The notes: generated from the sequence alone by a model not told the origin. A stretch of DNA of 64,000 nt from a virus (IMGVR_UViG_3300048849_000076:1-64000); one strand, 5' to 3'; shown: positions 1-61,973, numbered from the stretch's first letter. Numbers and translations: made by a program.

Positions 1-1
1 G

Positions 2-24638: not shown

Positions 24639-24653
24639 GAGTATAGGTTACTT
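24639..24653. promoter_or_regulatory. 15-bp palindromic motif copy (degenerate)
   Basis: GAGTATAGGTTACTT in the 46-bp gap between thyA and the nuclease gene. 13/15 identical to the copy at 57439. Confidence 0.4.
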
Positions 24654-25629
24654 AGACTGAAACATCGGCCTTGATGGCAGGGTGGGGCCAGTAGTCATTG
24701 ACCATAACATCTGCCGGTTCAAATTCGAAGATCGACTTCTGGCCGGCCCTCGTCAGATCCAGGCTTGGCAATGCCTTAGGCTCGCGAGTCAGCTGCTCCT
24801 TCGCCTGCTCAACATGGTTCGCGTAGAGGTGCAGATCCCCGAACGTGTGGACGAAGTCGCCAACTTCGAGACCACACTCGCGAGCCACGAGGTGGGTCAG
24901 CAAAGCATATGATGCGAGGTTATATGGGACGCCCAAAAACCAATCTGCGCTCCTCTGGTAGAGTTGGCAGCTGAGCTTGCCGTTGGCGACATGGAACTGG
25001 AACATCGTGTGGCACGGCGGGAGAGCCATGTCTTCGATTTCGGCGGGGTTCCAGGCTGAGATGATGTGCCGGCGACCATGGGGGTCTTTCTTGATCGCAT
25101 TGATCACGTTGAGCAGCTGGTCGATTGCTTTCCAACCTTCATGGTTGTCGAAGAACTCCCAGGAACGCCACTGCTTGCCATAGACTGGTCCCAGGTCGCC
25201 GCTGGTGTCGGCCCACTCGTCCCAGATGGTGACGCCGTGGTCGTTCAGGAACTTGATGTTCGTATCGCCAGCAATGAACCACAGGAGCTCGACAAGGATG
25301 CCCTTGAAGTGAACCTTCTTCGTGGTCAGCAGCGGGAAACCATCTGCCAGATTGAAGCGGAGCTGCTCCCCGAACAAACCGTAGGTTCCACCATTGCGGC
25401 CGTCTCGGTAGACCCCATCCTTCAGCAGGCGAGCCAGCACTTTCAGGTACTGGTGGTCGGCCATGTTGCCGACCAGGCGCAGGTTCTTCTCGTTGTAGAT
25501 GTGTAGGGCACCGCGATCGTCCTCGACGACGATACGTGGTTGGCCATCCTGTTTCAGAAAGACGGAGTCGATGACACCGTCAAATTCATAGTCGCCGGTC
25601 ACCTTGGTAACGAGGTCGCCTTTTTTCAT
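24652..25629 (-). CDS. thyA: thymidylate synthase with ~55-aa N-terminal extension
   Basis: The core from [10 protein letters not shown] aligns with E. coli ThyA blocks ([54 protein letters not shown]). ATG 25629 forms an ATGA overlap with the upstream stop. Confidence 0.93.
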
Positions 25630-25886
25630 ATGCAGTGTTTCCTTATGCAGTTGATCATATCCATGACGAAGTTGATGTCGGACGGAACCCCGGTCCCATC
25701 CTGAAATTTGCGATAGCGAGGCCAGAAATGTTCGTTCAGCTCGTCGGCGCAAGCCTTGGCCTGGCGCTGGCCTTTGAACTCCCAGTTCTCCCGCTGACCG
25801 GCAATCTTCGTGCCGTTGATGGTGCGGCCCTTGCGAAGGCAGAGCCGCCACTTTCCATCAGTTTCTTGTCGGGCGCCGAAGGCCAT
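25626..25886 (-). CDS. hypothetical protein
   Basis: 86-aa ORF in the operon. Its stop overlaps the thyA start. Confidence 0.6.
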
Positions 25887-26049
25887 TCTTCCCCTCCTCG
25901 AGGATGATCGAGTTAGCGATGATGGTTTTGCACTCGATCCTGTTCAAGAAGCAGGAGACAACGAATTCGTTGATCTCCTTCACGTCCGGCGACCACTCAA
26001 GGATCGCTGCAACCAGTTGGCGGTCGTAGTTCTCAGCTCCAGGGGTCAT
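25858..26049 (-). CDS. hypothetical protein
   Basis: ATGA overlap with the ligase stop. Confidence 0.5.
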   Translation of the reverse strand: MTPGAENYDRQLVAAILEWSPDVKEINEFVVSCFLNRIECKTIIANSIILEEGKNGLRRPTRN

Positions 26050-27122
26050 GCGTCGGGCCTATCGAAGTCGATCGCGATCGGGAAGCGCGGGACGCCATCT
26101 GGAGTCAGCTCGAAGAACTGGATCGTGGCGATCTTCACGTCACGGGTGAGCAGCTCCTTGCAGAAGCCCTGGTTGCCTTTGACGCCAGCGCCGAACTCGC
26201 GTCCGTCAGGTAAGGTGCAGACGGCCCGCTTCCCATAGCCGGCCCAGTTGCCGACACCTTCTTCGATCCGAGCGATCGGGAACTCCTGCGTCTGGAACTC
26301 CTTGAACTTCATCAAGGCCTTGGACCGCTTCTGGTGATATGGCTCATTGGCCTTACGAACCATTGCGCCCTCATACCCCCGCCGGATGCAGGCTTCGAAG
26401 AAGCTACGGACTTCCTGATGGCTGCTCACGGTGGCTGTGGGGACTACATGGATCGACCAGCCGAAGTCGACCATGCGATTGTGAAGATCCACATTACGAT
26501 CGAGCGCCGTTACGGCCAGGTTGTCACCATAAACCAAATCATAAACGTGAAACTCGATATCACGAGCAGCACGTTGAAGCTGTGCCGCATCAGGCTTCTG
26601 CTTCCGAATGATCGATGCCAATTCGTTGAAGTTGTCCTTGAGGTCATGATTGTAGAGCTCGCCATCCAGGATCGCATTCGGGAAGTTGCGGAAGAACGTC
26701 GCCAGTTGCTCGCTGATGTGCGGGCAGGAGGTGATAGGCTCACCCTTTCTGGACCGCAGACCGTCGACAGTTGCGATGCAGCGGATGCCATCTAGCTTGG
26801 CTTGAACCAAGTCACCCTCTTCCACCGACGCCGCGTCATACTTTTCCGCCAGCATTGGCGCGAAATACTTCGCTGTGGCCGTGCCCTCGATTGTGAGGTG
26901 GTAGTCCCGCTTCAGCTTTTTCTTCATCTCGGCATCAGCTTCGAAGATTGCCTGCTCCTCAGCGGTTGGCTGGCTCGCCGGCACACATTTGGTCGGCGCA
27001 CTGGTGACCTTGTTGCCGTCCTGCAGGCCGGCGATGGTCCACCAGCTGTCGCCTTCGACGACATACTGCCAGGTGCGGATCTTGCCCTTCGAGTCGAGCT
27101 TGTAGATTTCGGTTGATTTCAC
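26046..27122 (-). CDS. ATP-dependent DNA ligase
   Basis: Adenylation motif AKLDGIRC, with later EGAMVR and MKFK motifs. Confidence 0.9.
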   Translation of the reverse strand: MKSTEIYKLDSKGKIRTWQYVVEGDSWWTIAGLQDGNKVTSAPTKCVPASQPTAEEQAIFEADAEMKKKLKRDYHLTIEGTATAKYFAPMLAEKYDAASVEEGDLVQAKLDGIRCIATVDGLRSRKGEPITSCPHISEQLATFFRNFPNAILDGELYNHDLKDNFNELASIIRKQKPDAAQLQRAARDIEFHVYDLVYGDNLAVTALDRNVDLHNRMVDFGWSIHVVPTATVSSHQEVRSFFEACIRRGYEGAMVRKANEPYHQKRSKALMKFKEFQTQEFPIARIEEGVGNWAGYGKRAVCTLPDGREFGAGVKGNQGFCKELLTRDVKIATIQFFELTPDGVPRFPIAIDFDRPDA

Positions 27123-27622
27123 GATTGGATCTCCAGTCTGATTTTGATGTTCTTGATGTCTTCGTCATAGGGGCCGTCATCAAGCAGATGATCCAGCTCC
27201 GCGAGACGCGAGATGGCATGGCTCTCCTCGCGCCGACGTCCGTTGAGGAGGTTGAACCGAACTCGGGCGATGAACTTCGGCTTCTCGAGATCGAAGGGAG
27301 GATCAGGTTCCGGCTCAGGTGCTCGGGACATTGCCTCAAGTACCTCTGGCTCGAGCCTCGGCCGCACGGTTAGCTTCTCTGTGAGCGTCCGGAGCCAGTG
27401 GGTACGCCGGCACTGATTGTTTCCGCCTTCCAGGTACTCAACGATCGACTCCATGGCGCCGCGGTCGAGCTGCAGAGTCAGTTGCTCCGAAATGTAGACG
27501 ACACTGAACTGGTCGTACTGCTGGAACTGGTGGACGGATCGGAACGATTGCAGGATTGCAATGAGTTGGTCGGCGGTAAGCGGACCATTCACGGGTGTAG
27601 CTACGAGAATGTGAGCTCGCAT
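27119..27622 (-). CDS. hypothetical protein
   Basis: ATG 27622 with AAGGA SD, downstream of the polymerase stop. ATGA overlap with the ligase start. Confidence 0.6.
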   Translation of the reverse strand: MRAHILVATPVNGPLTADQLIAILQSFRSVHQFQQYDQFSVVYISEQLTLQLDRGAMESIVEYLEGGNNQCRRTHWLRTLTEKLTVRPRLEPEVLEAMSRAPEPEPDPPFDLEKPKFIARVRFNLLNGRRREESHAISRLAELDHLLDDGPYDEDIKNIKIRLEIQS

Positions 27623-27665
27623 GACATGTCCTTGGATTGTTGAGGGGAAAGGAAAGTCTCGCCGC

Positions 27666-31873: not shown

Positions 31874-31980
31874 AGATACTGTTCCTTGATACAGAGATTT
31901 CGTTTCCCGTTGCGAGTTCTTTCGCTTCGGTGATTGCTATGTGGCACGAGTCTTTTTGAGATTTAAGGTCTGATCAGCGT

Positions 31981-31995
31981 GAGTAATCTGTACTC
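31981..31995. promoter_or_regulatory. 15-bp palindromic motif copy
   Basis: GAGTAATCTGTACTC at the SNF2 stop, about 108 nt upstream of the SSB-like start. Confidence 0.5.
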
Positions 31996-33421
31996 ACGCA
32001 GCAAGTTTGTAATCTTGCTCATATCCTGAGAGTTGCAGGATAGGACGGCTGGGATCTACCTTGTTGGCGTCGAGGCTCTTCCGGTAGATGATGCCGCAGA
32101 TATGCTGATCGAGAGAGTCGTTGTATTCCAGGGTCGTGAGCCTCAGAGGCGTCGACCGCTTTCCGCGGATCGCTCGCTGACGGGCCTGAACGAATGTCGC
32201 GTCCGAGAAGCCGAGCGCGATGAAGATTTCATGATCAACCTCCTTTTCTCCGCAGAATTGCCAGTTGTATCCGAACGATGCGGTTTGCTCGGTGGCGAGG
32301 ATGACTTGAATGCGGCCGGCGATGAAATCCTCGTCGACAGCGTCACGCTGTTTGCGTGACTGTTGCCCGTTGATGAGCCCGAACTTGAAGTGCATCGACT
32401 TCAAGATCTCAGCGATGCGTTCCTGCTGGGGGATCAGCGGCGTGAAGATGATGAGTGGCTTTTCATTGAGCCAGTGCTCCTCAAGGTGGACTTTGAGGCG
32501 CTCCTCCTTCTCGGTCGGTTCGCCCTTCATGATGTCGATGAACTGGCCCGGGAACCGGAGATCTGGGAAGTTGCTCGGATGCTCCATGAGCTGACGGGCG
32601 CGAGTGAAGGCGACTCCAGGCAGTGTGCCGTCGAGGAAGAACTGCTCCAGCTCGAGGATCGCGTCGTCACGGAAGGTGTCGTAGTAGCGCCGCTGCAGCG
32701 GCGTCATATCCACCATCTCAGGGATATGAACGACCTCCTGCTCACCATGGACGCTTGCGAACGTGCGTCGGATGGCATGCCGGCCGAAGATCTTGGCCAG
32801 CTTGTCGTGGTTCTTCCAACCCTCGATTTTTCCGTCGAAGCCGAAGACACCGTGGTGGTTGAGAAAGCCCTGCTCGCTCATGTAATAGCGAGGCTGGATG
32901 ATGCGGATCGCTGGATAGGCTGAAGAGAGCTTGCCGTCGATGAGAGTGCCGGTCATCCCAAGGAAGTGGGTCATCCGTCCGATGTCGAACATTCGAAAGA
33001 GCGCTAGGCTGTTCTGACTATCAGCGGATTTGTAACCCATATGCAGTTCGTCAATATGAACAGCTTTGACGTGAGCTGGCAGTTGCTTCCAACTGAGAGT
33101 GAACCGGCGGAAGCCCATTAGATAGACCTTGGCACCGCTCTCGAGTTGCTTCTTTACTTGAGCGGGAGTGCCGTCGACGATAACGACATCCTCGTCTTTG
33201 AAGTTGGTGAACCGAAGGATCTCTTTTTTGTTCTTCTTCAGGAGAGATTTCGGTTGCGGCCAAACTGTCCCGATGCCATGCTCGGACCACAGGTACCATT
33301 GCATTACCACAACAGATGGTGTTTTGCCGGTTCCTGCGTCCGAGAGGTTTAGGCATTTTTGGTTAGCCATATAGAAGGCAAGGTCCGCAATTTGATAATC
33401 GCGGAGAGACGCATTAGTCAT
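31994..33421 (-). CDS. SNF2/DEAD-like superfamily 2 helicase
   Basis: DYQ...DAGTGKT (motif I), DELH (motif II), C-terminal helicase motifs. Starts at ATG 33421, or alternatively GTG 33433. Confidence 0.85.
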   Translation of the reverse strand: MTNASLRDYQIADLAFYMANQKCLNLSDAGTGKTPSVVVMQWYLWSEHGIGTVWPQPKSLLKKNKKEILRFTNFKDEDVVIVDGTPAQVKKQLESGAKVYLMGFRRFTLSWKQLPAHVKAVHIDELHMGYKSADSQNSLALFRMFDIGRMTHFLGMTGTLIDGKLSSAYPAIRIIQPRYYMSEQGFLNHHGVFGFDGKIEGWKNHDKLAKIFGRHAIRRTFASVHGEQEVVHIPEMVDMTPLQRRYYDTFRDDAILELEQFFLDGTLPGVAFTRARQLMEHPSNFPDLRFPGQFIDIMKGEPTEKEERLKVHLEEHWLNEKPLIIFTPLIPQQERIAEILKSMHFKFGLINGQQSRKQRDAVDEDFIAGRIQVILATEQTASFGYNWQFCGEKEVDHEIFIALGFSDATFVQARQRAIRGKRSTPLRLTTLEYNDSLDQHICGIIYRKSLDANKVDPSRPILQLSGYEQDYKLAA

Positions 33422-33434
33422 GGAGGTACCCACT

Positions 33435-33782
33435 ATGGATTTGGCAGAGATCGACGCAAAGATCGCGGAGTTGGAAGCGCTGAAGGCGAAGGCCCTGGCT
33501 GCTGAGAAAGAGAAGGAAGATCAGTCTCGATATGACGAGGCTGTCATTCTGTTTCCGGAATTGATCGCGATCGTCCGCAGACTGCACGAGATCGGTTACC
33601 TGCCGCCACGCTTGGCGAAGGTGTTGACCGATGAGACCGGGAAGGTGAACCCGGGGATGTATCTGAAACGTCCCCGGGCTGTCATCAGGCAGCATGACGT
33701 AGCGAGCGAAGATGAGCAGCCCACTCACGAGCCTCATGCCGCTCCTCGGAAGCGAGCTGCTCGTAGTCAGGCATCAGCTTAA
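33435..33782 (+). CDS. hypothetical coiled-coil protein on the opposite strand
   Basis: ATG 33435 with GGAGG 8 nt upstream. GC3-rich. The only credible ORF filling 33434-33684. Its 3' end overlaps the convergent gene by 98 nt. Confidence 0.55.
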   Translation: MDLAEIDAKIAELEALKAKALAAEKEKEDQSRYDEAVILFPELIAIVRRLHEIGYLPPRLAKVLTDETGKVNPGMYLKRPRAVIRQHDVASEDEQPTHEPHAAPRKRAARSQASA

Positions 33783-34557: not shown

Positions 34558-34989
34558 CTAATTACGGACATTCGGCCTCCCATATAAATTGCTGTCGAAG
34601 GTTTGCATCAAGGTGTCGATAGACTGTTTCGTCACCTCGGAGATCGTGATCAACTGGCTAAGGCTGAAGTCATGCTGCCCAACTTCCATCCGTGCCAGGA
34701 CGATAGGGCTGACGCCAAGCTTCTCTGCGAACGCCCTCGATCCAGTCGCGCCTCGTGCCATGTTCAGGCGAATACCAATGGCGTGGTGCTGACGGGATAT
34801 AGGTAGGGAGTTTTCGCGGCGCTTCGGTCCCTTTTGTGTGGGCGTGTAATTCCGGACGATCTTGCTACGCTGGAAAAGCTTGCGGATGGTCTGATCTGAA
34901 CGCTTGTACTTATGGGCAATTTCGGCCACAGACATGGTGCTGTGCTCGAGATCATGAAGCGCACTGGTATGCCAACTGGGTGTAGTCAT
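34558..34989 (-). CDS. helix-turn-helix transcriptional regulator (two HTH-like segments)
   Basis: MSVAEIAHKYKRSDQTIRKLF, plus the XRE-like AFAEKLGVSPIVLARMEVGQHDFSLSQLITISEV. Monocistronic, flanked by long non-coding regions. Confidence 0.7.
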   Translation of the reverse strand: MTTPSWHTSALHDLEHSTMSVAEIAHKYKRSDQTIRKLFQRSKIVRNYTPTQKGPKRRENSLPISRQHHAIGIRLNMARGATGSRAFAEKLGVSPIVLARMEVGQHDFSLSQLITISEVTKQSIDTLMQTFDSNLYGRPNVRN

Positions 34990-41906: not shown

Positions 41907-42773
41907 TCAGGAACCGAAGTTGGCGAGGATGTTGGTGCGAGCTTTCATGACTGATCGGATGAAGGTCTTCAGCTGGGCCTGGTCGTTAAGCGTGTCCTTG
42001 TTCACGTAGACCTTGGCGAGCCAGGTGAGGGTGTCCTTACCGTCGAACCAGCCCTGCAAGCTCTTCTTGTAGGTGCCGCTCGGGATCTCGGAGTAGGCAT
42101 AGAGTGGCTTGCCCTGCGAGTCCGGCGCGTCGTCGAAGTCACGGTCATTGACGCCGACCAAAGCCAGATTATCGCCATAGAACTCGTCGGCCGAGCGGAT
42201 GGTCGAGTTACCCAACGCCGCCGGGAAGAGACCGCATGTCGTCTGATCGTTGGCGATAGATGAGAGAGCGATGTCGCCACTTTCATCTGTGGGGCGAACG
42301 CCGGCATAGTCCGAGTCTTCTGCGATGAGGTTCTGCCAGATCAGCCAGGCGCCCGAGCCGCTGCCACCGAGGGCAATCGAGTATTTCTTCGCGTTGCTCT
42401 CGAGATCACCAATGTCGTCGACACCAGAGTTCTTACCACACAAAGCGTGGAGGTATTCACGGTGCAGATCCGCGATCGGCAGGAACTTGGAGGCGCTTGC
42501 CGGCTCGACGCGCTTCAGATAAGCCAGCCCATCTGGTTGGCCGATGAAGGCATCGCACTTGCCCTGCAGCGAGAGCTGGATGTTGCCCCAGGTGCCGCCT
42601 GTGTCCTTGACGACCTGAACATCAAGACCGGCGCCCTTGGCTTCGGCTTTGATCATGTCGCCTGCTTGGGCATAAGGATCGGATGCTGCTCCGGTGCAAA
42701 GCGTCAGCGCTGCTGCAGGGCTGGAAAAAAGGCATGCGAGGGCGAGAGCCGCCCCGATAAAGAGCTTTTTCAT
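41907..42773 (-). CDS. secreted periplasmic solute-binding protein, TAXI/NMT1-like
   Basis: Signal peptide MKKLFIGAALALACLFSSPAAA. GGTWGNIQL, GQPDG, GGSGSGAW and YSEIPSGTYK follow the TAXI-type TRAP receptor pattern. Confidence 0.65.
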   Translation of the reverse strand: MKKLFIGAALALACLFSSPAAALTLCTGAASDPYAQAGDMIKAEAKGAGLDVQVVKDTGGTWGNIQLSLQGKCDAFIGQPDGLAYLKRVEPASASKFLPIADLHREYLHALCGKNSGVDDIGDLESNAKKYSIALGGSGSGAWLIWQNLIAEDSDYAGVRPTDESGDIALSSIANDQTTCGLFPAALGNSTIRSADEFYGDNLALVGVNDRDFDDAPDSQGKPLYAYSEIPSGTYKKSLQGWFDGKDTLTWLAKVYVNKDTLNDQAQLKTFIRSVMKARTNILANFGS

Positions 42774-42843: not shown

Positions 42844-42858
42844 GACTACAGTGTACTC
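42844..42858. promoter_or_regulatory. 15-bp palindromic motif copy
   Basis: GACTACAGTGTACTC, 71 nt upstream of the binding-protein start. Shares the 17-nt GGACTACAGTGTACT with the copy at 43954. Confidence 0.55.
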
Positions 42859-43361: not shown

Positions 43362-43704
43362 CGGCCAGATCCTCCTTCGTGATGTAGCGGCCGACGCGGT
43401 AGTTGCCGCGGTCGTCCTTGGTGATGAACAGGTTCTCGTTTAAGAGCTCGTCGCGGATCTCGTTCAAGACGCGGACTGCTTGGACCGCCTTACCGATGGT
43501 GCTTTCACGCCGTCGCTGCTTCCGCAGCTCGCGTAGCACTGGCTTCACCTCCTCGATCGCTCTCCATCCCCTGATCAAACCACCCAGCGACCGCCAATCT
43601 TCTTTGGTCATGTTCAGGAATCGAACCTCGGTGATGTCGTGGTGCTTGAGTAGGTTGGAGGTCTTGATGTCCAGCTCGAGCTGATCGATGAAGTTAACCG
43701 ACAT
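43354..43704 (-). CDS. helix-hairpin-helix protein resembling the RNA polymerase alpha C-terminal domain
   Basis: IDQLELDIKTSNLLKHHDITEVRFL aligns by eye with alpha-CTD [25 protein letters not shown]. Confidence 0.5.
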   Translation of the reverse strand: MSVNFIDQLELDIKTSNLLKHHDITEVRFLNMTKEDWRSLGGLIRGWRAIEEVKPVLRELRKQRRRESTIGKAVQAVRVLNEIRDELLNENLFITKDDRGNYRVGRYITKEDLADV

Positions 43705-43915
43705 GGGGTGCCCTCCCCGAGCCATTGCAGACGCTGCAATCGATCACGTCGATGTTGCCGTTCCCCATATAAATCTGCTCGAGGCCGGCTCCATTGCAGG
43801 CTTCACACTTGCAGTCGCAGGGGATCAGGATCGGCTCGCCCCATGGATAGGTACCGCCGCTATCTGCCATGCCTGTGTCGTCGCATTTGGGGCAAGTGGT
43901 CATGGTCTGGGTCAT
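43694..43915 (-). CDS. DnaJ-type CxxCxGxG zinc-finger protein
   Basis: CPKCDDTG, CEACNGAG and CSVCNGSG repeats in 73 aa. Confidence 0.65.
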   Translation of the reverse strand: MTQTMTTCPKCDDTGMADSGGTYPWGEPILIPCDCKCEACNGAGLEQIYMGNGNIDVIDCSVCNGSGRAPHVG

Positions 43916-43953: not shown

Positions 43954-43968
43954 GACTACAGTGTACTG
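43954..43968. promoter_or_regulatory. 15-bp palindromic motif copy
   Basis: GACTACAGTGTACTG, 39 nt upstream of the zinc-finger gene start. Confidence 0.55.
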
Positions 43969-46229: not shown

Positions 46230-46550
46230 ATGTCTAGTGTATTTATGATCATGCCACCCAACGAGCTCAACGACGAGGCCGTCTTGAAGCGAGAGCAGTT
46301 CGAAGCCCACCTCGCAACCGAGTTTCCCGGCTACAAGTTCGAAGTCGTGGATCTGCGTATGCTGCGGCCAGTTGGTCACGGTCAAAAGGTCATGTTTGGC
46401 GACGGCTCGCAGTTCACCGTCATGCCAATGATGGGATCGACCGGTGAGGGCAAGCGCACCTTCGAAATGCCAGACCGCGAGTTGATCGCAGAGATCATGC
46501 GTGCCTGCCACAAGTTCGATTTTCAGAACTCGAAGCGGTACGTGGCCTAG
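46230..46550 (+). CDS. hypothetical protein on the opposite strand
   Basis: ATG 46230 with GGAGG 6 nt upstream. 106 aa. Its stop overlaps the convergent ParG-like stop (CTAG). Confidence 0.6.
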   Translation: MSSVFMIMPPNELNDEAVLKREQFEAHLATEFPGYKFEVVDLRMLRPVGHGQKVMFGDGSQFTVMPMMGSTGEGKRTFEMPDRELIAEIMRACHKFDFQNSKRYVA

Positions 46551-46846
46551 ATCTTCGCCTTCTTCATCAAAGCCTCGAGCCCCTCCCCGTAGGAATAGCC
46601 GTGCTCGTTGCAGAACTCCTTGAAGCGGTTCGTCATCTCGAGCGGGCCGCGGACATAGAGCGTGTCTTGGATTTGGTTCTTCTTCCGGATCTTTTCGACA
46701 CGGACCAGTGGTTCGCGGCTGACGAACCCTGCCCTATCGGCCGCACGGTCGTTGTCGACCACGTCCACCACCGGCTTCGGCTTGAAGTCGCTGAGATCGA
46801 GTTTCTTCTTCGTCGGGGCGCCAAAGCCCAAGTCGTCGTCGCTCAT
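46547..46846 (-). CDS. ParG-like partition/centromere-binding protein (C-terminal RHH)
   Basis: ATGA overlap with the parA stop. C-terminal [34 protein letters not shown] fits an RHH fold. Confidence 0.5.
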
Positions 46847-47508
46847 GCGGCCCTCAATACTTCTGCGATCTCAGCTGTGAGGGTCGCTGCGTTGTCGATT
46901 GCCTGCTGCAGGCCGTTCACTTCCTTCGGGTCCAGCTCGTAGAGGCTGAGCCGTCTCAGGAACATGGCATTGTACGCCTGCCTCATGTGGAGATGGGTAT
47001 TCAGGACCGGCATCTCGTTCTTGAACATCTGTTCCGATATCTGCCGCTCAACCCTCGTGGTGAATGGTGGCGGACTGGTCCGGTTGAAGACCAGGGTAAA
47101 ATTCAGCTTTCGGCCAGTGTCCTCTTCGCTCTCGCGGACAAGGTTCACAGCTCGCGCTGCCTGCTTGGCTTCGAGTGCCGAGCCGCCGAGTGGGATCAGG
47201 GTCAGATCCGATCGCATGATCGCACGGGACGCCATCCGGCTCGCGGTACCTTCGAGGTCGATGAAGACGAAAGAGGATCGAGCCGACTCCTGGGCGATCA
47301 AATCGCGGATGTTGCTCTCGGTCACGTCGCTCACGACGTTCATCTCAAGCTTGCTCTTCCCTCCGCGCCAGTCAGTGATCGGCTTGTTCGGGTCGGCGTC
47401 GATGATGGAGACGCTGGCACCCTCGTGGGCAAGGATCGTGGCCAAAGCCATGATTGTCGTGGACTTCCCTGCCCCACCTTTGGGGTTCGCGGCACAGATG
47501 ACCGGCAT
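46843..47508 (-). CDS. parA: ParA/Soj-family partition ATPase (small, type Ib-like)
   Basis: Deviant Walker [11 protein letters not shown], then IDADPN. 221 aa with no N-terminal HTH. Confidence 0.9.
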
Positions 47509-55300: not shown

Positions 55301-55315
55301 CAGTACACTATACTC
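55301..55315. promoter_or_regulatory. 15-bp palindromic motif copy (inverted orientation)
   Basis: CAGTACACTATACTC is the exact reverse complement of the copy at 55400. Confidence 0.6.
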
Positions 55316-55399
55316 TCTTTTTCTTCTTTAGGGGAAAGTAGAAGAAAAATAAGAAGTATAACCAAAAACGGTCCAAATCCGACACATTCAGGCTCAACC

Positions 55400-55414
55400 G
55401 AGTATAGTGTACTG
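55400..55414. promoter_or_regulatory. 15-bp palindromic motif copy
   Basis: GAGTATAGTGTACTG. Confidence 0.6.
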
Positions 55415-55436
55415 GCCCCTCCACCCCCACTGGTAC

Positions 55437-55472
55437 GAACCCGAACCCGAACCCGAACCCGAACCCGAACCC
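55437..55472. repeat. perfect hexanucleotide tandem repeat (GAACCC)x6
   Basis: Six uninterrupted units read directly. Begins 8 nt beyond the stop of the minus-strand gene at 55480. Confidence 0.95.
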
Positions 55473-55479
55473 GATCCTG

Positions 55480-56272: not shown

Positions 56273-56337
56273 GTTCGAAATCCCGGTTTTCGCGGTTTTA
56301 GAGGAAGGTTTCGCGCGTCTAGGTTGTAGACGGAGGT

Positions 56338-56361
56338 AAGGCTCCCCCGCGGGGGAGCCTT
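56338..56361. repeat. perfect 24-bp palindrome containing TCCCCCGCGGGGGA (copy 2)
   Basis: AAGGCTCCCCCGCGGGGGAGCCTT lies between two minus-strand genes. No U-tract on either side. Confidence 0.85.
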
Positions 56362-56366
56362 GGGTC

Positions 56367-57095: not shown

Positions 57096-57114
57096 TTCCG
57101 TTTCCCTTTCCGTT

Positions 57115-57153
57115 TCCCCCGCGGGGGAGAGTTGAACCATCCCCCGCGGGGGA
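57115..57153. repeat. two tandem TCCCCCGCGGGGGA palindromes (copies 3 and 4) in a 5' leader
   Basis: Exact 14-mers at 57115-57128 and 57140-57153. They are followed on the minus strand by the direct repeat GGAAACGGAAA before the ATG. Confidence 0.85.
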
Positions 57154-57438
57154 GACCAGAGAGAGGACACACCTCTCCCGGCAGGCCGCGAGCCTTTGGC
57201 CCGCTTCCCTCGTCGATCTCTCGATCAACTGTGATTACTCTATTGTTCCAACACCTGGATTGGAACCGAAGGGTACCACCTAATTATCTGATAGAATTGA
57301 GCTATTTGGCCTTAATGGGGTCAGACAAACTCTGGGAAATTTTTGAGTTTTCCGACTGCTATCATAGGCCTCCGAGCCGCGTTTCGATGACCTAAAGATA
57401 CTTGCACCACGGTTCTGAGCGCCACCCCTGAAGTGCGT

Positions 57439-57453
57439 GAGTATAGTGTACTT
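57439..57453. promoter_or_regulatory. 15-bp palindromic motif copy overlapping a TTGCAA hexamer
   Basis: GAGTATAGTGTACTT. TTGCAA at 57452-57457 is followed 18 nt later by CATAAA. Lies 68 nt upstream of plus-strand ATG 57521. Confidence 0.55.
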
Positions 57454-57520
57454 GCAAAATGCAGTCCGTTTAGCGCATAAAGCCCCTCAAACCTGAGCGT
57501 GTGCACCGAGACTCCCATAT

Positions 57521-58066
57521 ATGATACCGGATTTAGAGGTCTTTGGACCCTGCGCCCCAGCTGGCAGAGATATCGAGCCATTAGAACTTCGATACAAACC
57601 AAACTCGCGGCAAGAACTCGACGACGCAGGCATCGCAGGTCTGAAGAGCTATCTTGAAAGTGCCAACCTGCTCGAAATCACACGCGTTCTGAACCAGAAA
57701 ATGGTGATCCTGTGGGTCATGGACATCAAGGGAATTATCCACTTCGCTTTTGAAGAGATCGTTCACGCATCCAACGGCGAGTACCTTATGCCCTATGTAC
57801 GGGAGAATTACGCGGTAGAACAGTTGAAGGACGATATCGAAAAAGGTGTAGTCGGTCGTCTAGGTCATCCTTCTCTTTTGGAAGGGAATAGAGAGGCTAG
57901 GATCGGTGGAGAAATTGTCCTCAGATTGGAAGACGGTGACGAGACACTATGGAAGATCAACCGGCGTTCGGGGAGGTATGGGCAAAGGCCTCATCAGACG
58001 GATGAACATTTGAAGGCTGTTCATTCACTTTTGACCTACAAAGGGCTATATTTGGGTCTTGAATAG
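57521..58066 (+). CDS. hypothetical protein, gene 1 of the low-GC plus-strand island
   Basis: 181-aa ORF. Third codon positions are visibly A/T-richer than in neighbours. C-terminal core GRLGHPSLLEGNREARIGGEI..WKINRRSGRYG. No family recognised. Confidence 0.7.
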   Translation: MIPDLEVFGPCAPAGRDIEPLELRYKPNSRQELDDAGIAGLKSYLESANLLEITRVLNQKMVILWVMDIKGIIHFAFEEIVHASNGEYLMPYVRENYAVEQLKDDIEKGVVGRLGHPSLLEGNREARIGGEIVLRLEDGDETLWKINRRSGRYGQRPHQTDEHLKAVHSLLTYKGLYLGLE

Positions 58067-58094
58067 CGGTTTGATCCCGCAGAAGGTATCAAAG

Positions 58095-58754
58095 ATGAAC
58101 CTGGCCAACACTTCGCCAAAGCAGCTTAGAAGGCTTTCTGCCTCGATTGCTGAGAGCGATGAGACGCTCGCAGAGTTCCTAAGTTCACTACAAAGCACGC
58201 TCCTAGCCTTCCCGCTCGACAAGGGCGCGTTCCGCGACGAGCTTTTCATGTTGGGCGCCGACTTGTTTAACGCGGGAGTCTTGGCTGCGGCGGGCGAAGC
58301 GCGCATCGCACACGTTCTCGCAGCGGTCCCGGCTCCAACTGTGGAAGTGTTCCTAGAAGGAGTCGATGAGACCTTCGCCAAATCGGTACGTCGAGAGATC
58401 AACATCACTTCTCATACCGCTGAGAAGCTCGCACCTTCGGCTGTCGGGTCAATGTACAGGTATTTCGGCGACATCGCACTTCAGGGAGTGGGTGTAAAAT
58501 GGGCCGATTTACTTTCGGGTCGAGATCAAGAGGTGGACCACTTCTTACCAAAAGCTATGTACCCGCTATTCCCTTGGACCGGCTCGAGAGGTTTACGAAA
58601 GCATTACACCCGCCTCAACAAGGAGCAATTGAACCTGTTGATTGAAGATCTCAACACTGGTGGGGTCACCTCATTGAGCCCAGAGCTTCAAGAAAAGCTT
58701 CAGAGCCTAGGCATCCTTACTCTCATCTCCTCTGCCGGAAGATTCTCAAGATAA
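58095..58754 (+). CDS. hypothetical protein, gene 2 of the island (HNH-like DHFxPK segment)
   Basis: ATG 58095 with GAAGG SD, 28 nt after the gene 1 stop. Helical Ala/Leu-rich N-terminal half. QEVDHFLPKAMYPLFPW segment. Confidence 0.7.
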   Translation: MNLANTSPKQLRRLSASIAESDETLAEFLSSLQSTLLAFPLDKGAFRDELFMLGADLFNAGVLAAAGEARIAHVLAAVPAPTVEVFLEGVDETFAKSVRREINITSHTAEKLAPSAVGSMYRYFGDIALQGVGVKWADLLSGRDQEVDHFLPKAMYPLFPWTGSRGLRKHYTRLNKEQLNLLIEDLNTGGVTSLSPELQEKLQSLGILTLISSAGRFSR

Positions 58755-58778
58755 AGGCGCCTCAAGGGCGCCTTTTGA
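58754..58778 (+). terminator. intrinsic terminator 1 of the island
   Basis: AAGGCGCC-TCAAG-GGCGCCTT followed by TT. Confidence 0.75.
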
Positions 58779-58785
58779 TGATCGG

Positions 58786-58809
58786 AACGGCACCTGGAGG
58801 CCGTTTTTT
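58786..58809 (+). terminator. intrinsic terminator 2 of the island
   Basis: AACGGC-N8-GCCGTT followed by TTTT. Confidence 0.7.
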
Positions 58810-58823
58810 GACGATGCGGATGA

Positions 58824-58952
58824 CTACAGAACCGCGATGCTGATGTGCGTAAACAGCCACCAAAGCCCCCAGATTGTGCCTCCAATTGACGCCAGAGCCC
58901 CAATCGCGGCCCAGATCATGAGAAAATAGAGCAGATTTCCAAGTCTAGTCAT
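58824..58952 (-). CDS. possible 42-aa two-TM peptide
   Basis: MTRLGNLLYFLMIWAAIGALASIGGTIWGLWWLFTHISIAVL. Starts 1 nt after the preceding stop. Confidence 0.3.
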   Translation of the reverse strand: MTRLGNLLYFLMIWAAIGALASIGGTIWGLWWLFTHISIAVL

Positions 58953-58953
58953 G

Positions 58954-59025
58954 TCAGTTGATCCAAAAGGGGATTGAGAAGAACGCGACGAAAACCGCGA
59001 TGATGACGAAGTCCTTCCAGCTCAT
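58954..59025 (-). CDS. possible 23-aa TM peptide
   Basis: MSWKDFVIIAVFVAFFSIPFWIN. ATGA overlap with the primase-helicase stop. Confidence 0.3.
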   Translation of the reverse strand: MSWKDFVIIAVFVAFFSIPFWIN

Positions 59026-61430
59026 GCGCCGACGCCCAGGTAGAAGAGTTCGTTGCCCTGCCGGATGTCGATCTGGAACGGCATGCTGCCACTCAGCTCC
59101 TTCATCAGCTTCGTGAATTTCGTGATGTTGGCGCGGTTGGACGAACCGGTCGCCAGCATGAATTGCCAGTAGTGAGTATGCAGCTCGGCCAGCGAGATCG
59201 ACTGCTCGGCGCCCCACTTCAGAACCGTGCCAGGCGACGTCAGGAAGTGACGGACGGTGTTGTTGTCCGCTGCCATTGCGTCGATCAGAGCCAGGCACGA
59301 CGTCGGGACCGTGAACTTGCCCATGTCCATCAGCCGCTTGTAACCCTGGACCGCCCAGGCGACGATTGCCTCCCGCTCGTGCTCGAGGATCTGGCTGTCG
59401 AGATCGATAATCCGCTTCGACGGATCGACGCGATTGTTGAACTCGAGGATCAGCCAGCGACGATTGAAGCCTTCCGAACTGTCGCGCGTCTTTGGCAGGA
59501 AGTTCGAATTGAACCAGTGAGCCGCTTCCGGCTCAAAGCTGAACGGCTGGGCATTCTTGAACTGCACCGTGAGCTCTTCGCCCGAGATGATCTTCTTGAA
59601 GATATCGCCTGGGATGGGCCGGGACTCCGACAGCTCGCCTGCGAAGTTGATGACCTTGCCGAACATCTCGGCCGGCAGGAACTTATCGCCCCAGTCGGTC
59701 GGCGCGATCGACGAGCTCGAGCCGTAAGGCACCAGACCCTTCATGATCGACTGGAGGACGGACTTGCCGGAACCAGCCTGGCCGAACAGCAGGAACGCCA
59801 TCTCGAAGAACGGCGCCTTACCCATCAGGGAGACGCCGATCGCCTCCTGCAGGGCCAACAGCTTGTCACCATAGTCTGCGTCCGAAGCCCAGCAATCGTT
59901 CAGGAAGGCATCAAACATCGGCATGTGGCCGGCCTTCTCGGGTGTGTACCGGTAGGGCAGGGTATAGGTCATGCCGTAGTCTTCGGCGTGGGCGACCAGC
60001 TCGAGGTTCTCGGTCAGATAGCCATTGGCAAAGTTCACGCCCTTGACGTACGAGTTCCGGAGCGGAGCTGCAGCGAGCGCCTTCATCACCTTCAGAATGC
60101 CGGTGTGGTCACCCTGGCGGCGACCTGCAGGATAGGAGCCGTAATTCTCAGCGATGATCTTCAGCAGCTCAGCTTCCTGGCACTGAACCCAGGCGGCGCC
60201 CCGCCACTGCCAGAACTTCGAGGCGTCATAGCGGACGTCGCCATAGACCTTCAGGAAGTTGAGGCAGGCTTCGGCCAGCTCGGCGTGCGTCTCACCCGTG
60301 ATATCGCCGCGGCGAAGGGTCAGCAGCTGCTTCTTCAGGTCAGTCAGCGACAGAACATTGGTCTGCTGGTTGGCGATGAACTTCAGGACCATCGCTTCCT
60401 CGAGCGGTCCCATTGTCGGATTGGCGCGGACGATCCGGTCCAGAGCGACATTCACGGCATTCATCCGGCCTTCCGACCGCGGATCTGGGTGACGCTCTAC
60501 CTCAGCCGCAAGATAATCGAGGATCATCTGGACGGACCACGTCTTGTCGTCTTCCGTGAAGGAGAGGCCGAGTTTATCGAGATCTTCCTCGCTGAGACCT
60601 TCGTCCCAACCCAGCGGCAGAGCCTTGCGAGCCTCCGACGTCACATCGCGGACGAGAAACTCGACGACCTTCGCCTGAGCCTTGTCGACAGAGAGTGGAT
60701 CCCCGACAACCTTCTCGACGAAGTTGTCGACCCAGGCCTTCATCTCACCGAGAACCTGGAGCAGCGAACGCTCGCCGCGAAGCACAGCCCGGGCCAGGAG
60801 GCCCGCCATCCATACCATTGTCGCGTCACGAGCACCGGCTGGCACGTAGCTGGCACTCTTGTTGCCACCACCGGTGGACACCGCAATGCCGGCCTCGCGG
60901 AGGGCGCTCTTCAGTACCCGTTCGAAATCCATCGGCAGGGGAGGGGCGTTCTTGGCGATCTCCCAGAGGTTACCATTCGCCGTATAGGGCAGCTTGGTGT
61001 CCGGATGGATCGAGGGCGGCAGCACGAACTGGGTGCCCTTCGACAGGATTTCGCAGATCATCGAGCCGTCTTCGGCCTTGATACGAGCCGTCCGCTCGCC
61101 CGACCAACGGTAGACCTGGACTCGACCCTTGCGGCCGACGCGGTGCCACGGGCTCGGCGGCAGGATGCGGTCGAGAACCTGCAGGACAACCGGATCTTCG
61201 GAGTCGATGTCGATTGCGACGAGGCCGGCGCTCGGGCCCATCGGCAGACCGATGTTTCCGGATGCGAAGGCATTCAGCCAGCCCTGCTGCTCTTCCTTGG
61301 TCGGGAAGGCGTCGGAATACGTTTGCCAGCGAGGGATCGCGGGGCGCTTATTTTCGTAGATCAGCGGGATCGCGGGAAGGCCAGCGTCCCAATACAACTG
61401 AGCATGGCTTGCGAAGATGTTACTGACCAT
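59022..61430 (-). CDS. bifunctional prim-pol primase / SF3 (P4/D5-type) helicase
   Basis: N-terminal prim-pol block GLVAIDIDSEDP. C-terminal Walker A FGQAGSGKSVLQS with a D5/P4-like context. 802 aa. Confidence 0.88.
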   Translation of the reverse strand: MVSNIFASHAQLYWDAGLPAIPLIYENKRPAIPRWQTYSDAFPTKEEQQGWLNAFASGNIGLPMGPSAGLVAIDIDSEDPVVLQVLDRILPPSPWHRVGRKGRVQVYRWSGERTARIKAEDGSMICEILSKGTQFVLPPSIHPDTKLPYTANGNLWEIAKNAPPLPMDFERVLKSALREAGIAVSTGGGNKSASYVPAGARDATMVWMAGLLARAVLRGERSLLQVLGEMKAWVDNFVEKVVGDPLSVDKAQAKVVEFLVRDVTSEARKALPLGWDEGLSEEDLDKLGLSFTEDDKTWSVQMILDYLAAEVERHPDPRSEGRMNAVNVALDRIVRANPTMGPLEEAMVLKFIANQQTNVLSLTDLKKQLLTLRRGDITGETHAELAEACLNFLKVYGDVRYDASKFWQWRGAAWVQCQEAELLKIIAENYGSYPAGRRQGDHTGILKVMKALAAAPLRNSYVKGVNFANGYLTENLELVAHAEDYGMTYTLPYRYTPEKAGHMPMFDAFLNDCWASDADYGDKLLALQEAIGVSLMGKAPFFEMAFLLFGQAGSGKSVLQSIMKGLVPYGSSSSIAPTDWGDKFLPAEMFGKVINFAGELSESRPIPGDIFKKIISGEELTVQFKNAQPFSFEPEAAHWFNSNFLPKTRDSSEGFNRRWLILEFNNRVDPSKRIIDLDSQILEHEREAIVAWAVQGYKRLMDMGKFTVPTSCLALIDAMAADNNTVRHFLTSPGTVLKWGAEQSISLAELHTHYWQFMLATGSSNRANITKFTKLMKELSGSMPFQIDIRQGNELFYLGVGA

Positions 61431-61890
61431 TGCTGAGCACTCCGTCGATACGCTTCATGAAGTCCGTGATCTGATCCTTGCTGAGGACTTCATCCATGAA
61501 CTGGATGACGATCGACCGAAACTCGTTGATCTGCTTGAGGTTTGCCGCCCGCTCGAGGTTGTTGAGGAGCTTCTCGACCAAGGACGTTTTGGTCTTGAAG
61601 TACTGAAGCTTCTCGGAGGTATCGCCGGCACCAAGCCCCTGGCCGTAGGCCTCGAGGTCATTGATGATCTTCTGGATCTGAATGTTGATCGCGACGACCT
61701 CGTCACCCTCGAAGAGATCAGGCACTTCGGCGCTGACTGCGACCTGCTGAGTGAAGAAGTCCTTCACGGTCTGCGGATAGGGGCACTTCGGGTTGTTGAG
61801 GAAGTCTTTGTTTTCCGCGATGTTGCGGAACACTCGGGTAATCAGGAGGATCTGGTCCTCCGAGATGTTCGGAAAATATGTGGATTGCAT
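61420..61890 (-). CDS. hypothetical protein (first gene of the replication operon)
   Basis: 156-aa ORF. Overlaps the primase start by 11 nt. Confidence 0.65.
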   Translation of the reverse strand: MQSTYFPNISEDQILLITRVFRNIAENKDFLNNPKCPYPQTVKDFFTQQVAVSAEVPDLFEGDEVVAINIQIQKIINDLEAYGQGLGAGDTSEKLQYFKTKTSLVEKLLNNLERAANLKQINEFRSIVIQFMDEVLSKDQITDFMKRIDGVLSNGQ

Positions 61891-61958
61891 GGTAGCTCCG
61901 TGACTGTCGGAGACCGATGTAGAAAATGAGTGGTCATTTGGCTACATCCGACAGTTCT

Positions 61959-61973
61959 GAGTACCCTGTACTC
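61959..61973. promoter_or_regulatory. 15-bp palindromic motif copy (most symmetric)
   Basis: GAGTACCCTGTACTC (GAGTAC-N3-GTACTC) in the divergent region between 61890 (minus start) and 62021 (terL start). Confidence 0.6.

Follow-up and report, generated by a model that had tools for sequence, protein, structure and literature searches.

Dispersed binding sites for prophage repressors are well documented in temperate phages. The C1 operators of phage P1 are scattered over its plasmid-prophage genome, where many separate lytic operons are controlled through them; they are asymmetric 17-mers which overlap promoters. The late promoters of P2, 186 and P4 carry a dyad near -55 (TGT-N12-ACA) and are activated by the Ogr/Delta zinc-finger proteins. 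Cluster A mycobacteriophages possess stoperators, asymmetric 13-bp sites that are oriented with transcription, number 20-30 per genome, lie mostly away from promoters and are read by a monomeric repressor (PMC6550527, PMC9283540). The E. coli SlmA site, GTGAGTACTCAC, has 12 bp and no spacer and is read by a TetR-family protein of gamma-proteobacteria (PMC3020112), and Thermus phage P23-45 has unusual polymerases with promoter motifs of their own (PMC10770324).

The DNA analysed here (the window) comprises 64 kb of the ~82-kb genome of a Rhizobiaceae siphovirus that is distantly related to Caulobacter phage Seuss. It contains nine copies of a 15-bp palindrome with the consensus GAGTAC-A(G/C)T-GTACTC; on the gene strand the motif reads nAGTACACTATACTC. 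Eight copies had been listed in a preliminary description, and their coordinates and sequences were all found to be correct; the ninth, GAGTATAGAGTACTT at 20506-20520, fits the same degenerate pattern. This pattern gave 11 strand-matches at 9 places, compared to 0.07 expected from shuffles, but the count is circular as the pattern was built from the sites themselves, and less circular tests were therefore added. The symmetric 8-base core AGTA-N5-TACT was matched 7 times (0.14 expected) and GAGTA-N5-TACTC, with at most one mismatch, 9 times (0.79 expected). A matrix scan of both strands of the window set the nine sites cleanly apart from non-sites, with scores of 17.9-26 against around 10 for the next best. 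It is clear that the recurrence of the motif is real and far above chance. The copies at 55301 and 55400 are, as had been claimed, identical in opposite orientation, being exact reverse complements 84 nt apart, and the 57439 copy does match them at 14/15 positions; the 42844 and 43954 copies, said to share 17 nt, share 15 contiguous nt, GGACTACAGTGTACT.

By the gene calls, the eight listed copies are intergenic in a window that is ~85% coding and ~15% non-coding. The earlier statement that every copy is intergenic thus holds for these eight but fails for the full set, because the 20506 copy lies within the 3' end of an SbcC-like ORF, with 81 nt between it and the next gene downstream, which encodes an HTH_8 protein. 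The arms of this copy are made up of two rare codons, GTA (8.8% of Val) and ACT (16% of Thr), both of which are kept in the window and in the related phages rel, L105, L106 and L107, whereas the intervening residues vary. All nine copies have a gene start downstream, and the distances to minus-strand start codons, given previously as 33-108 nt, were measured as 32/50, 107, 70 and 38 nt, in agreement. Most sites directly precede predicted promoters of replication, recombination and packaging genes, and in four of the listed cases the copy overlaps or adjoins the stop codon of the preceding gene.

The motif is retained at orthologous positions in related phages from Rhizobium, Ensifer and metagenomes (L093; rel, from Rhizobium sp. 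Leaf383; L105; L106, from Ensifer; L107, from R. ruizarguesonis; and L110, from R. arsenicireducens) while the flanks have diverged; these relatives are of common ancestry and so are not independent observations. In the L111/L112 lineage no copy of the standard motif was found, and GAGTTC-N3-GAACTC is present at 3/3 orthologous sites examined, with the same change in both half-sites each time. Such a concerted, symmetric switch is what would be expected if a dimeric reader changes its specificity. The reader could instead be a regulator of the Rhizobiaceae host whose site the phage exploits for gene timing; the motif-bearing phages all come from Rhizobium or Ensifer, and no phage-encoded binder emerged among the candidates (see below). 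This is improbable, however, since a reader carried along by the phage accounts more simply for the switch in a close lineage; moreover, no known rhizobial regulator with such a site was found in the literature.

The spacing between the motif and downstream elements is conserved. The copy GAGTATAGGTTACTT at 24639-24653 lies between thyA, whose stop codon overlaps it, and the resolvase gene; its ortholog is present in rel, L105, L107 and L110, has the variant form in L111 and is decayed in L106. The predicted core promoter of the resolvase operon (24595-24624, minus strand) consists of TAGAAA (24624-24619), 18 nt and CATGTA (24600-24595), followed after 6 nt by the ATG at 24588, where no Shine-Dalgarno sequence is found. 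The motif centre is 57-59 nt from this ATG in seven phages despite divergent spacers; the -35-like hexamer, which is TTGAGA in L105, L107, L110 and L111, begins 14 nt past the motif, and conserved -10-like blocks follow. The copy GAGTAATCTGTACTC (31981-31995), located where the SNF2 helicase gene has its stop codon, is kept in L105, has degenerated in rel and occurs as the variant in L112. Downstream of it is a predicted minus-strand promoter (31937-31966; TTAAAT, 18 nt, (CC)ACATAG); the offset is again 14 nt, and a tgCCA[CA]ATA[GA] block is conserved, in the window, rel, L105 and L112. The copy GACTACAGTGTACTC at 42844-42858, whose left arm has an uncompensated G-to-C change and whose ortholog in rel is GCCTACAGTGTACTC, is followed by TTCCGC-17-TATCTT, a Shine-Dalgarno sequence and the ATG at 42773. 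Its partner in the shared 15 nt, GACTACAGTGTACTG at 43954-43968, is upstream of a 73-aa zinc-finger ORF. Rel lacks it, and the orthologous gene there shows translational coupling to the gene before it; this copy is probably a recent duplicate.

The fully symmetric copy GAGTACCCTGTACTC (61959-61973) lies between two divergent genes; L093 has GAGTACTCTGTACTC here and rel retains the left arm only. To its right is the predicted plus-strand terL promoter (61984-62014), with TTGCAA, 19 nt, TATAAA and then 6 nt to the ATG at 62021. The block CACCATATAAACTCTCAATG is conserved in the window, L093 and rel, and in three phages the motif centre is 55-56 nt from the ATG. The terL mRNA may be leaderless, because its start has no Shine-Dalgarno sequence. 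To the left is a predicted minus-strand promoter for the 61420-61890/primase operon (61916-61944; TAGCCA, 17 nt, TACATC, then a 25-nt leader with GGAG). The copy GAGTATAGTGTACTT at 57439-57453, kept in L093 and with the form GAGTACAGTGTACCC in rel, is also in a divergent region; on the minus strand it is followed after 14 nt by TGGCGC, 18 nt and TATCTT, while on the plus strand it overlaps a -35-like TTGCAA (57452-57457; then 18 nt, CATAAA), as had been described.

Most sites therefore lie outside the predicted promoters, 14 nt (10-11 at terL) upstream of a -35/-10-like pair, which would place the centre of the dyad near -55 to -57. The promoter elements are predictions that match the consensus weakly. 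The similarity to TTGACA at the 14-nt offset, summed over the nine sites, was matched by 45/20,000 random sets, the offset having been picked post hoc. The plus-strand side of 57439 does not conform to this architecture, and neither does the inverted pair formed by CAGTACACTATACTC (55301-55315; kept with changes in L093, one arm only in rel) and GAGTATAGTGTACTG (55400-55414), after which no promoter-like pattern was found in either direction. An A/T-rich inverted repeat, TTTTTCTTCT/AGAAGAAAAA (55318-55349), is situated between the two copies and (CGAACC)x6.5 (55436-55474) alongside; the 55318-55474 region may be a replication origin.

From the position of the dyad and the weakness of the core promoters, our leading, though tentative, explanation is that the dyad is a candidate site for a phage-encoded homodimeric transcription factor that mainly activates weak host-polymerase promoters. 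A two-fold symmetric, sequence-specific factor, most likely encoded by the phage, would bind the 15-bp dyad, of which each promoter has one at a constant, short spacing on the upstream side of its -35, and would bring in RNA polymerase or stabilise it; the single 61959 site would serve two divergent promoters. The replication, recombination, nucleotide-metabolism and terminase operons would be off by default and would be switched on together after infection or induction. The motif would then be a viral control element of an ordinary type, though a genuine one.

The same protein-bound dyad could alternatively belong to a set of repressor operators that silence lytic operons, in lysogeny or late in infection, either by interference with polymerase or its upstream contacts or by an elongation block from upstream. 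Consistent with this, the family has integrated and integrase-carrying members, the window has a ParA-like gene, the sites are dispersed at operon boundaries with four abutting a stop codon, the lineage-specific variants resemble the immunity groups of Cluster A mycobacteriophages (PMC6550527), and a motif-like site precedes the Cro/CI-type gene by 83 nt in the integrated copy from R. arsenicireducens. However, the sites are upstream of the predicted -35 at a conserved spacing and do not overlap the -35, -10 or +1, there would be little to repress because the predicted core promoters are weak, and variation in the Cro/CI-type protein does not follow that of the motif, nor does its own gene have a copy beside it in the window. 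A dyad centred near -55 to -57 is no less fitting for an activator than for a classical operator, and it is also compatible with repression; activation appears somewhat more likely, and repression an appreciable but unlikely alternative.

The motif could itself be the promoter of a phage polymerase or sigma factor. Its core, ...ACACTATA..., resembles T7/SP6-type promoters, P23-45 with its unusual polymerases is a distant relative (PMC10770324), and canonical sigma-70 sites are no commoner than chance. Yet a search of the proteins of the 64-kb window yielded neither a phage RNA polymerase nor a sigma factor; an unassigned 505-aa ORF lacks a DxDxD signature and does not match solved polymerases, and the 3238-aa ORF is a tail-tip protein, not an N4-type virion polymerase. 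Furthermore, conservation is symmetric, the orientation of the sites is independent of gene direction (arm deviations 5 versus 8), and reading of one strand would not require the lineage switch to be symmetric, so that a promoter function of this kind is very improbable.

The 6-3-6 geometry would also permit a hairpin in RNA or in extruded DNA, that is, a terminator, a processing or stability element, a lambda boxB-like antitermination signal or an N4-type promoter, and the A5/T11 to T5/A11 change of the variant lineage preserves pairing. The flanks of the 31981 copy lengthen the stem to 9 bp, and this longer, stable stem (-13.8 kcal/mol, z = -3.2) is the sole significant fold of the nine; the thy-resolvase copies of L105 and L107 top longer, stable, terminator-like stems followed by a T-run. 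At the other 8/9 sites folding is no better than in shuffled controls (z from -1.0 to +1.5), the window's copies are not followed by a T-run, the N4-type virion polymerase is absent, and the stem sequence is conserved rather than covarying site by site. Several copies have uncompensated mid-stem mismatches (GACTAC...GTACTC, GCCTAC...GTACTC, ...GTACCC); such asymmetry is normal for weak protein half-sites but bad for a stem. Because of these mismatches and the unremarkable folding of 8/9 sites, a hairpin or terminator role is quite improbable. The proposal in the preliminary description of a symmetric dimeric protein rather than a sigma-70 promoter is thus favoured by the conservation, the uncompensated mismatches and the concerted half-site switch, and a hairpin or chance is likewise less fitting.

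The three binders that had been proposed gained no comparative support. The 137-aa product of 20011-20424 (minus strand) has an N-terminal Fis-type HTH (Pfam HTH_8, 24.5 bits against a cut-off of 22), which in a structure model (pLDDT 85) superposes on Fis, and a conserved alpha/beta domain; its HTH segment is identical in L110, with the standard motif, and L111, with the variant, and it is now less likely to be the reader. The 143-aa Cro/CI-type HTH_3 protein of 34558-34989 (minus strand; 24.3 bits against a cut-off of 23) is probably an immunity-region regulator, with orthologs that adjoin an integrase or a prophage end; its helices differ from phage to phage where the motif is shared, its gene in the window has no nearby motif copy, and the corresponding region of relatives contains different palindromes. 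The 59-aa product of 12926-13105 (plus strand), previously called a ribbon-helix-helix protein, had no match, to that fold or any other, in Pfam and PHROG searches, and its putative DNA-reading strand GIIAYG does not differ in the variant lineage or even in Seuss, a phage without the motif.

A fourth candidate, added here, likewise gained no comparative support. It is a possible plasmid-type partition module (46547-47508, minus strand), in which a gene for a ParA-like ATPase (46843-47508) is overlapped by a 99-aa ORF that weakly matches ribbon-helix-helix proteins; the part of rel that was covered yielded no such module. With such a pair the sites could be the dispersed centromere-like sites of a plasmid prophage, and relatives do occur as ~80-kb separate contigs in isolate assemblies. 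But no site lies at the par operon or upstream of parA, the motif is kept in the integrated prophage and the integrase-bearing lineage, and the fixed spacing to promoter-like elements would be left unexplained; this is the least probable of the explanations considered.

Among known systems, Seuss, the nearest annotated relative, has a 15-bp palindrome of its own, TTTACCT-N-AGGTAAA, in 7 copies (5 unique), one of which adjoins short tandem repeats as does the 55400 copy. It differs in sequence and position, however, as it contains the Shine-Dalgarno sequence and is located 1-16 nt before start codons, and it is probably a translation-level element. The SlmA site shares the half-site letters GAGTA/TACTC, and the 31981 copy reads GTGAGTA...TACTCAC, but the SlmA site serves a different function and this is a resemblance only (PMC3020112). 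The L5/Bxb1 type of Cluster A phage is similar in having one short motif in many copies, mostly in short intergenic gaps, a consensus that differs between lineages, and integrase or par alternating for prophage inheritance (PMC6550527, PMC9283540); in contrast to stoperators, the sites described here are symmetric 15-bp dyads, nine in 64 kb, most of which are tied to predicted promoters at a fixed distance. A set of scattered sites read by one regulator would recall the P1 regulon, but no homolog of C1 was detected in the window. Lambdoid CI/Cro operators are also palindromes, of 14-17 bp, read by dimeric HTH proteins whose specificity shifts between immunity groups, but they cluster at the immunity region and overlap promoters, whereas the present sites are dispersed and upstream of the -35, and the Cro/CI-type gene of the window has no adjoining copy. 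A member of the Ogr/Delta family was not found; the sole match of the 73-aa zinc-finger ORF (43694-43915) is a weak one to a DnaJ-type motif. The P2/186/P4 late promoters nevertheless offer a partial likeness, with a partial dyad at a similar position (-55), just ahead of the -35 in weak promoters, and a joint switch-on, although the sequence differs and the regulon here would include replication genes and not only late genes.

The 15-bp palindrome GAGTAC-N3-GTACTC was reported in the preliminary description from eight intergenic sites (24639, 31981, 42844, 43954, 55301, 55400, 57439 and 61959), and at all eight the sequences are as they were given there. The degenerate pattern written for these copies picks out these eight and a ninth, at 20506-20520, as compared with 0.07 matches in shuffled sequence; that pattern was derived from the sites themselves, and two less circular tests were added. 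The symmetric core AGTA-N5-TACT occurs 7 times in the window against 0.14 expected, and at up to one mismatch there are 9 matches to GAGTA-N5-TACTC where 0.79 are expected. In a position-weight scan of both strands the nine sites score 17.9-26 and everything else about 10 or less, and a search of the window for half-sites and recurrent intergenic words gave no hidden copies. An exact 14-mer scan of viral contigs returned single matches only, at chance level, and the literature searched holds no description of the motif.

On a codon-model gene map, whose gene calls are our own and in which coding sequence makes up about 85% of the window, all nine copies lie upstream of gene starts and eight lie in non-coding DNA. 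The claim that every copy is intergenic thus stands for the eight and fails for the ninth (20506), which is within the last 40 codons of an SbcC-like ORF with the next gene 81 nt on. Four copies abut the stop codons of upstream genes, and most have promoter-like elements at a constant distance. The near-invariant positions are AGTA at 2-5 and TACT at 11-14; over about 30 sites from 8 phages one arm has 5 deviations and the other 8, and the central bases split 6 versus 3 by orientation, which is no significant bias. The motif therefore has two-fold symmetry, with both half-sites conserved, across the regulatory regions of several operons. It would be a phage regulon site of a known kind, either an operator or an activator site.

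Such symmetry could also be that of a hairpin, a function to which we give a low probability. When the transcribed strand was folded as RNA with its flanks, the 31981 copy alone exceeded its shuffled controls in stability (z = -3.2); z was -1.0 to +1.5 for all eight remaining copies. The arm sequence is conserved without independent site-by-site covariation, and mid-arm changes are left uncompensated (GACTAC...GTACTC at 42844 and 43954; GCCTAC...GTACTC and ...GTACCC in the relative from Rhizobium sp. Leaf383). No T-run follows the motif at any of the window's copies. The case for a hairpin comes from two motif-bearing relatives, L105 and L107 (the latter from R. ruizarguesonis), where the thymidylate synthase-resolvase copy caps a longer G+C-rich stem with a T-run behind it; in our reading, a terminator has formed here around a palindrome that was already present. 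By stem stability and T-run these two copies alone fit an intrinsic terminator, and the motif as a whole was rejected as one.

The preliminary description had proposed conservation in related phages as a check, and orthologous positions are indeed kept in the near-identical strain L093, the Leaf383 relative, L105, L106 (Ensifer), L107 and L110 (R. arsenicireducens), relatives that are covered by partial genomes and share ancestry, so that they do not count as independent observations. In L093 4/4 sites of the covered region are kept, with changes that raise the symmetry of some. The Leaf383 relative keeps the orthologs of 20506, 24639, 42844 and 57439, has one-armed versions at 55301, 55400 and 61959, and is degenerate at 31981. 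Two copies, one before the HTH_8 gene and one between the genes for thymidylate synthase and resolvase, are kept in L105, L106, L107 and L110, and the non-coding sequence around the retained copies has diverged. Within SbcC, the residues between the arms vary (Y to G or H, L to M), and the arms themselves are GTA and ACT codons, used here for 8.8% of Val and 16% of Thr residues and kept in five phages; over the same stretch, only 23/57 same-residue positions have identical codons in three phages. The motif is absent from the genome of Caulobacter phage Seuss and from the low-G+C distant relatives L108 and L109. In these same codons near the SbcC 3' end, L108 and L109 9900-9914 carry other 6-3-6 palindromes (TGCAAATTCTTTGCA; TTCACTAACAATGAA), offset by 5 nt from the window's site, which do not recur in the 18-20 kb searched; this is only a hint of co-evolution.

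A further lineage, L111/L112, has changed the motif itself. At 3/3 orthologous sites GAGTAC...GTACTC has become GAGTTC...GAACTC: GAGTTCCAGGAACTC after the helicase gene, GAGTTCTAGGAACTG between thyA and the resolvase gene, and CAGTTCTTAGAACTC upstream of the HTH_8 gene, with no standard copy in the L111/L112 sequence available. At every site A5 to T is paired with T11 to A, so that both half-sites are altered, which is the expected outcome of a specificity change in a symmetric sequence-specific reader; the switch argues that the reader of the motif would travel with the phage. It offers a clean natural experiment in which a regulator and its entire set of sites would have changed specificity together.

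Four candidate binders, three of them named in the preliminary description, were compared across the phages, and the comparison supports none. The HTH_8 protein (20011-20424, minus strand; 137 aa) carries an HTH of the Fis type (Pfam 24.5 bits, cut-off 22), and its confident model (pLDDT 85) shows this HTH superposing on Fis and, besides it, a small alpha/beta domain; a fold search gave no significant whole-protein match, only the HTH resembling Fis, and a weak similarity to Lrp/AsnC-type regulators. A site lies upstream of its gene in every lineage. Its HTH segment differs among phages with the same motif and is the same in L110, with the standard motif, and L111, with the variant, which makes it a less likely reader, though still a possible one, since Cluster A phage repressors whose HTH domains are identical may have distinct site motifs. 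In the Cro/CI-type protein (34558-34989, minus strand) both HTH-like segments vary among motif-sharing phages, and the window has no site close to its gene; the gene of relatives adjoins other palindromes, ACCCACATGTGGGT and GTGACA boxes, and the protein more plausibly reads these than the motif. The 59-aa product of 12926-13105 (plus strand) has no family match, and its putative strand GIIAYG is the same in the variant lineage and in Seuss. The fourth is a 99-aa ParA-associated protein, whose own operon is without a site.

Two other features of these regions were seen. The 8-mer AAACACTC, or its complement, was found in four places, all of them non-coding (24613, 34314, 35224 and 35887), three of them around the Cro/CI-type gene and the copy at 24600-24620 within the palindrome AAACAC-CTGA-GTGTTT; these may be a second set of operators. 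The plus-strand gene 33420-33782 lies inside the minus-strand array, an opposite orientation kept in relatives L112 and L113, and its product, with a coiled-coil N-terminus, a basic ...GKxNPGMYxKRPR tail and no family match, may be a small DNA-binding protein.

The motif itself was rejected as a sigma-70-type promoter: no flank positions at the sigma-70 (-35) spacing around it are strongly conserved, and consensus scans, in which sigma-70 sites were no commoner than chance, were uninformative. A promoter for a phage RNA polymerase of the T7/SP6, N4 or P23-45 type was likewise rejected, since neither an RNA polymerase nor a sigma factor is found among the proteins scanned in the 64-kb window. 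The unusually long 3238-aa ORF (2270-11986, plus strand) is not an N4-type virion polymerase; it is a tail-tip J-like protein with CBM_4_9 carbohydrate-binding and GH85 C-terminal-like domains. A 505-aa ORF of no assigned function was ruled out as a P23-45-type polymerase, being without DxDxD and without a match to solved structures.

When the sites are aligned by the end of the motif, a shared pattern is seen toward the downstream gene: 14 nt, a -35-like hexamer, 17-18 nt and a -10-like block, all of these promoter elements being predictions. The hexamer begins with T (TTGAGA in four relatives; TAGAAA, TTAAAT, TAGCCA, TTCCGC and TCGCAG in the window). Predicted -10-like blocks are kept among orthologs, as CCATGTA/CCATCTA/CCATAAA at the resolvase gene and CCA[CA]ATA[GA] after the helicase gene; others are TACATC and TATCTT. 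Upstream of terL (62021, plus strand) the arrangement is a gap of 10-11 nt, TTGCAA, 19 nt and TATAAA. The distance from motif centre to ATG is 57-59 nt at the resolvase gene in seven phages, with very different spacers, and 55-56 nt at terL in three. Similarity to TTGACA summed at the 14-nt offset was equalled by 45/20,000 random sets in what was a post hoc test. The symmetric site at 61959 lies between two divergent arrangements of motif and promoter-like elements, and the 55301/55400 pair fits none of the promoter-like arrangements.

Neither terL nor the resolvase gene has a Shine-Dalgarno sequence, and at both a conserved -10-like hexamer stops about 6 nt short of the ATG (terL 62009-62023, CCATATAAACTCTCA-ATG; resolvase 24586-24600, CCATGTAACACTC-ATG), which suggests that their mRNAs are leaderless. 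Further inverted repeats were noted: one of 9 bp, ACTGTCGGA/TCCGACAGT, has inner arms GATGTAG/CTACATC and extends across the predicted leftward promoter next to the 61959 site (61903-61955), and two G+C-rich palindromes TCCCCCGCGGGGGAG, 23 nt apart, lie upstream of the 56367-57170 gene (57112-57156).

The 55301/55400 pair may have another purpose or be part of a replication origin, since an A/T-rich inverted repeat (TTTTTCTTCT/AGAAGAAAAA, 55318-55349) lies between its two members and it adjoins a perfect (CGAACC)x6.5 array (55436-55474), within a non-coding region of about 400 bp. The elements at 55318-55474 are a candidate replication origin or genome-end region. At the syntenic place in Seuss, (GGCTGGC)n adjoins that phage's own palindrome, a perfect 15-bp TTTACCT-N-AGGTAAA present in 7 copies (717, 1515, 68938, 76122, 82486 and terminal-repeat duplicates). 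Each takes in the Shine-Dalgarno sequence of a minus-strand gene, 1-16 nt ahead of its start codon, which suggests a translational control hairpin or an operator; since it sits on ribosome-binding sites, and Seuss lacks the motif, it was rejected as the same element. The non-coding block 57170-57400 is strongly conserved in the window, L093 and the Leaf383 relative and has no Rfam match. It includes a 14-codon minus-strand ORF, MIAVGKLKNFPEFV, at about 57378-57334, with a GGAGG ribosome-binding site; in the Leaf383 relative its changes are synonymous and conservative. This block may encode a leader peptide, or form a structured 5' part of the transcript beginning near 57439. Two plus-strand ORFs of 181 and 231 aa (57521-58754) have low third-position G+C (0.52-0.59), poor codon-model scores and no family matches, and the Leaf383 relative is without a counterpart; by their look they are an island of recent acquisition.

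The genome that carries the motif has a long minus-strand array encoding ribonucleotide reductase, SbcCD, thymidylate synthase, ligase, a family A DNA polymerase, an SNF2 helicase and a primase-helicase. Seuss, in which the gene order is the same, has the nearest DNA polymerase (49.5% identity); those of Achromobacter JWF, Xylophilus Lumi and Acinetobacter siphophages are more distant. A DNA-level search of 50,697 annotated phage records with 20 kb of the window gave no match, exact-protein look-ups of the window TerL and of a 99%-identical HTH_8 homolog returned no record, and a cultured, annotated close relative appears to be absent. Rfam and tRNA scans gave nothing. Two window proteins have homologs 99-100% identical on an 82,442-bp JGI contig, so that the window would be about 64 of 82 kb. 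Contigs of 80-83 kb from Rhizobium sp. Leaf383, Ensifer sp. ENS04 and R. ruizarguesonis carry further homologs. About 80 relatives were detected, and the phage family occurs widely in assemblies of Rhizobium, Ensifer and Mesorhizobium. The R. arsenicireducens element is integrated in a 4.3-Mb contig, where host genes begin just past the Cro/CI-type ORF, and a tyrosine integrase occupies the spot next to the Cro/CI-type gene in another lineage (L112 7289-8281). The window has a ParA-like ATPase with the overlapping 99-aa ORF (46547-47508), the latter a weak ribbon-helix-helix match. This is thus a phage family of Rhizobiaceae that is temperate or at least partly temperate. Clues to lifestyle are the ParA module, the integrase or integration in relatives (L112 7289-8281; L113, about 1-8300) and several whole contigs of about 80 kb; integration and plasmid-like maintenance may alternate within the family.

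In the mechanism that we propose, a symmetric dimer would be bound directly upstream of the -35 of weak promoters, its centre near -55 to -57. That position is classical upstream-activator geometry, from which we infer, as the preferred reading, that the replication, recombination, nucleotide-metabolism and terminase operons are activated together. The main rival is repression from these dyads, which gains credibility from the temperate lifestyle and from the dispersed, lineage-specific repressor sites known in Cluster A mycobacteriophages (PMC6550527), although the sites there lack symmetry, follow one orientation, are bound by a monomer and mostly lie away from promoters. To return to activation, it is possible, if rather doubtful, that the dyad and its putative reader, a new type of regulator acting as an activator near -57, are a genome-wide switch specific to this uncharacterised family of temperate Rhizobiaceae phages of about 80 kb, some perhaps plasmid prophages, which turns leaderless and leadered lytic operons on together and whose half-site diversification between lineages, GAGTAC versus GAGTTC, defines regulatory or immunity groups. 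If true, it would be the symmetric counterpart, in Alphaproteobacteria, of the repressor/stoperator system of mycobacteriophages. The motif is real and conserved and can help in dissecting a phage family that has not been studied, but is unsurprising in principle; for phage biology generally it is an element of an expected kind and brings no new principle. It provides a ready-made map of the family's transcription units and a simple handle for finding the master regulator, with the natural GAGTTC variant as a specificity control.

Likeness to the LexA boxes of Xanthomonas, cyanobacteria and Gram-positives, to NrdR boxes and to the ACTC boxes of ParG was dismissed, since these differ from the motif in spacing or symmetry centre. 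A plasmid centromere of the parS/parC type was rejected because no motif lies within 2.5 kb of parA and the motif is kept in integrated relatives. By the features tested, the motif falls outside the stoperator, intrinsic-terminator, sigma-70-promoter, phage-polymerase-promoter and centromere classes. Mycobacteriophage stoperators are asymmetric 13-bp sites in one orientation to transcription (PMC6550527), whereas the window's site is symmetric and without orientation bias. No match to the Ogr/Delta family, the activators of P2 late promoters, was found among the proteins scanned; a class I-like upstream activator site, as at those promoters, would have a fixed position before the -35 of weak promoters, and in the window the spacing of the dyads to the putative -35 elements is conserved.
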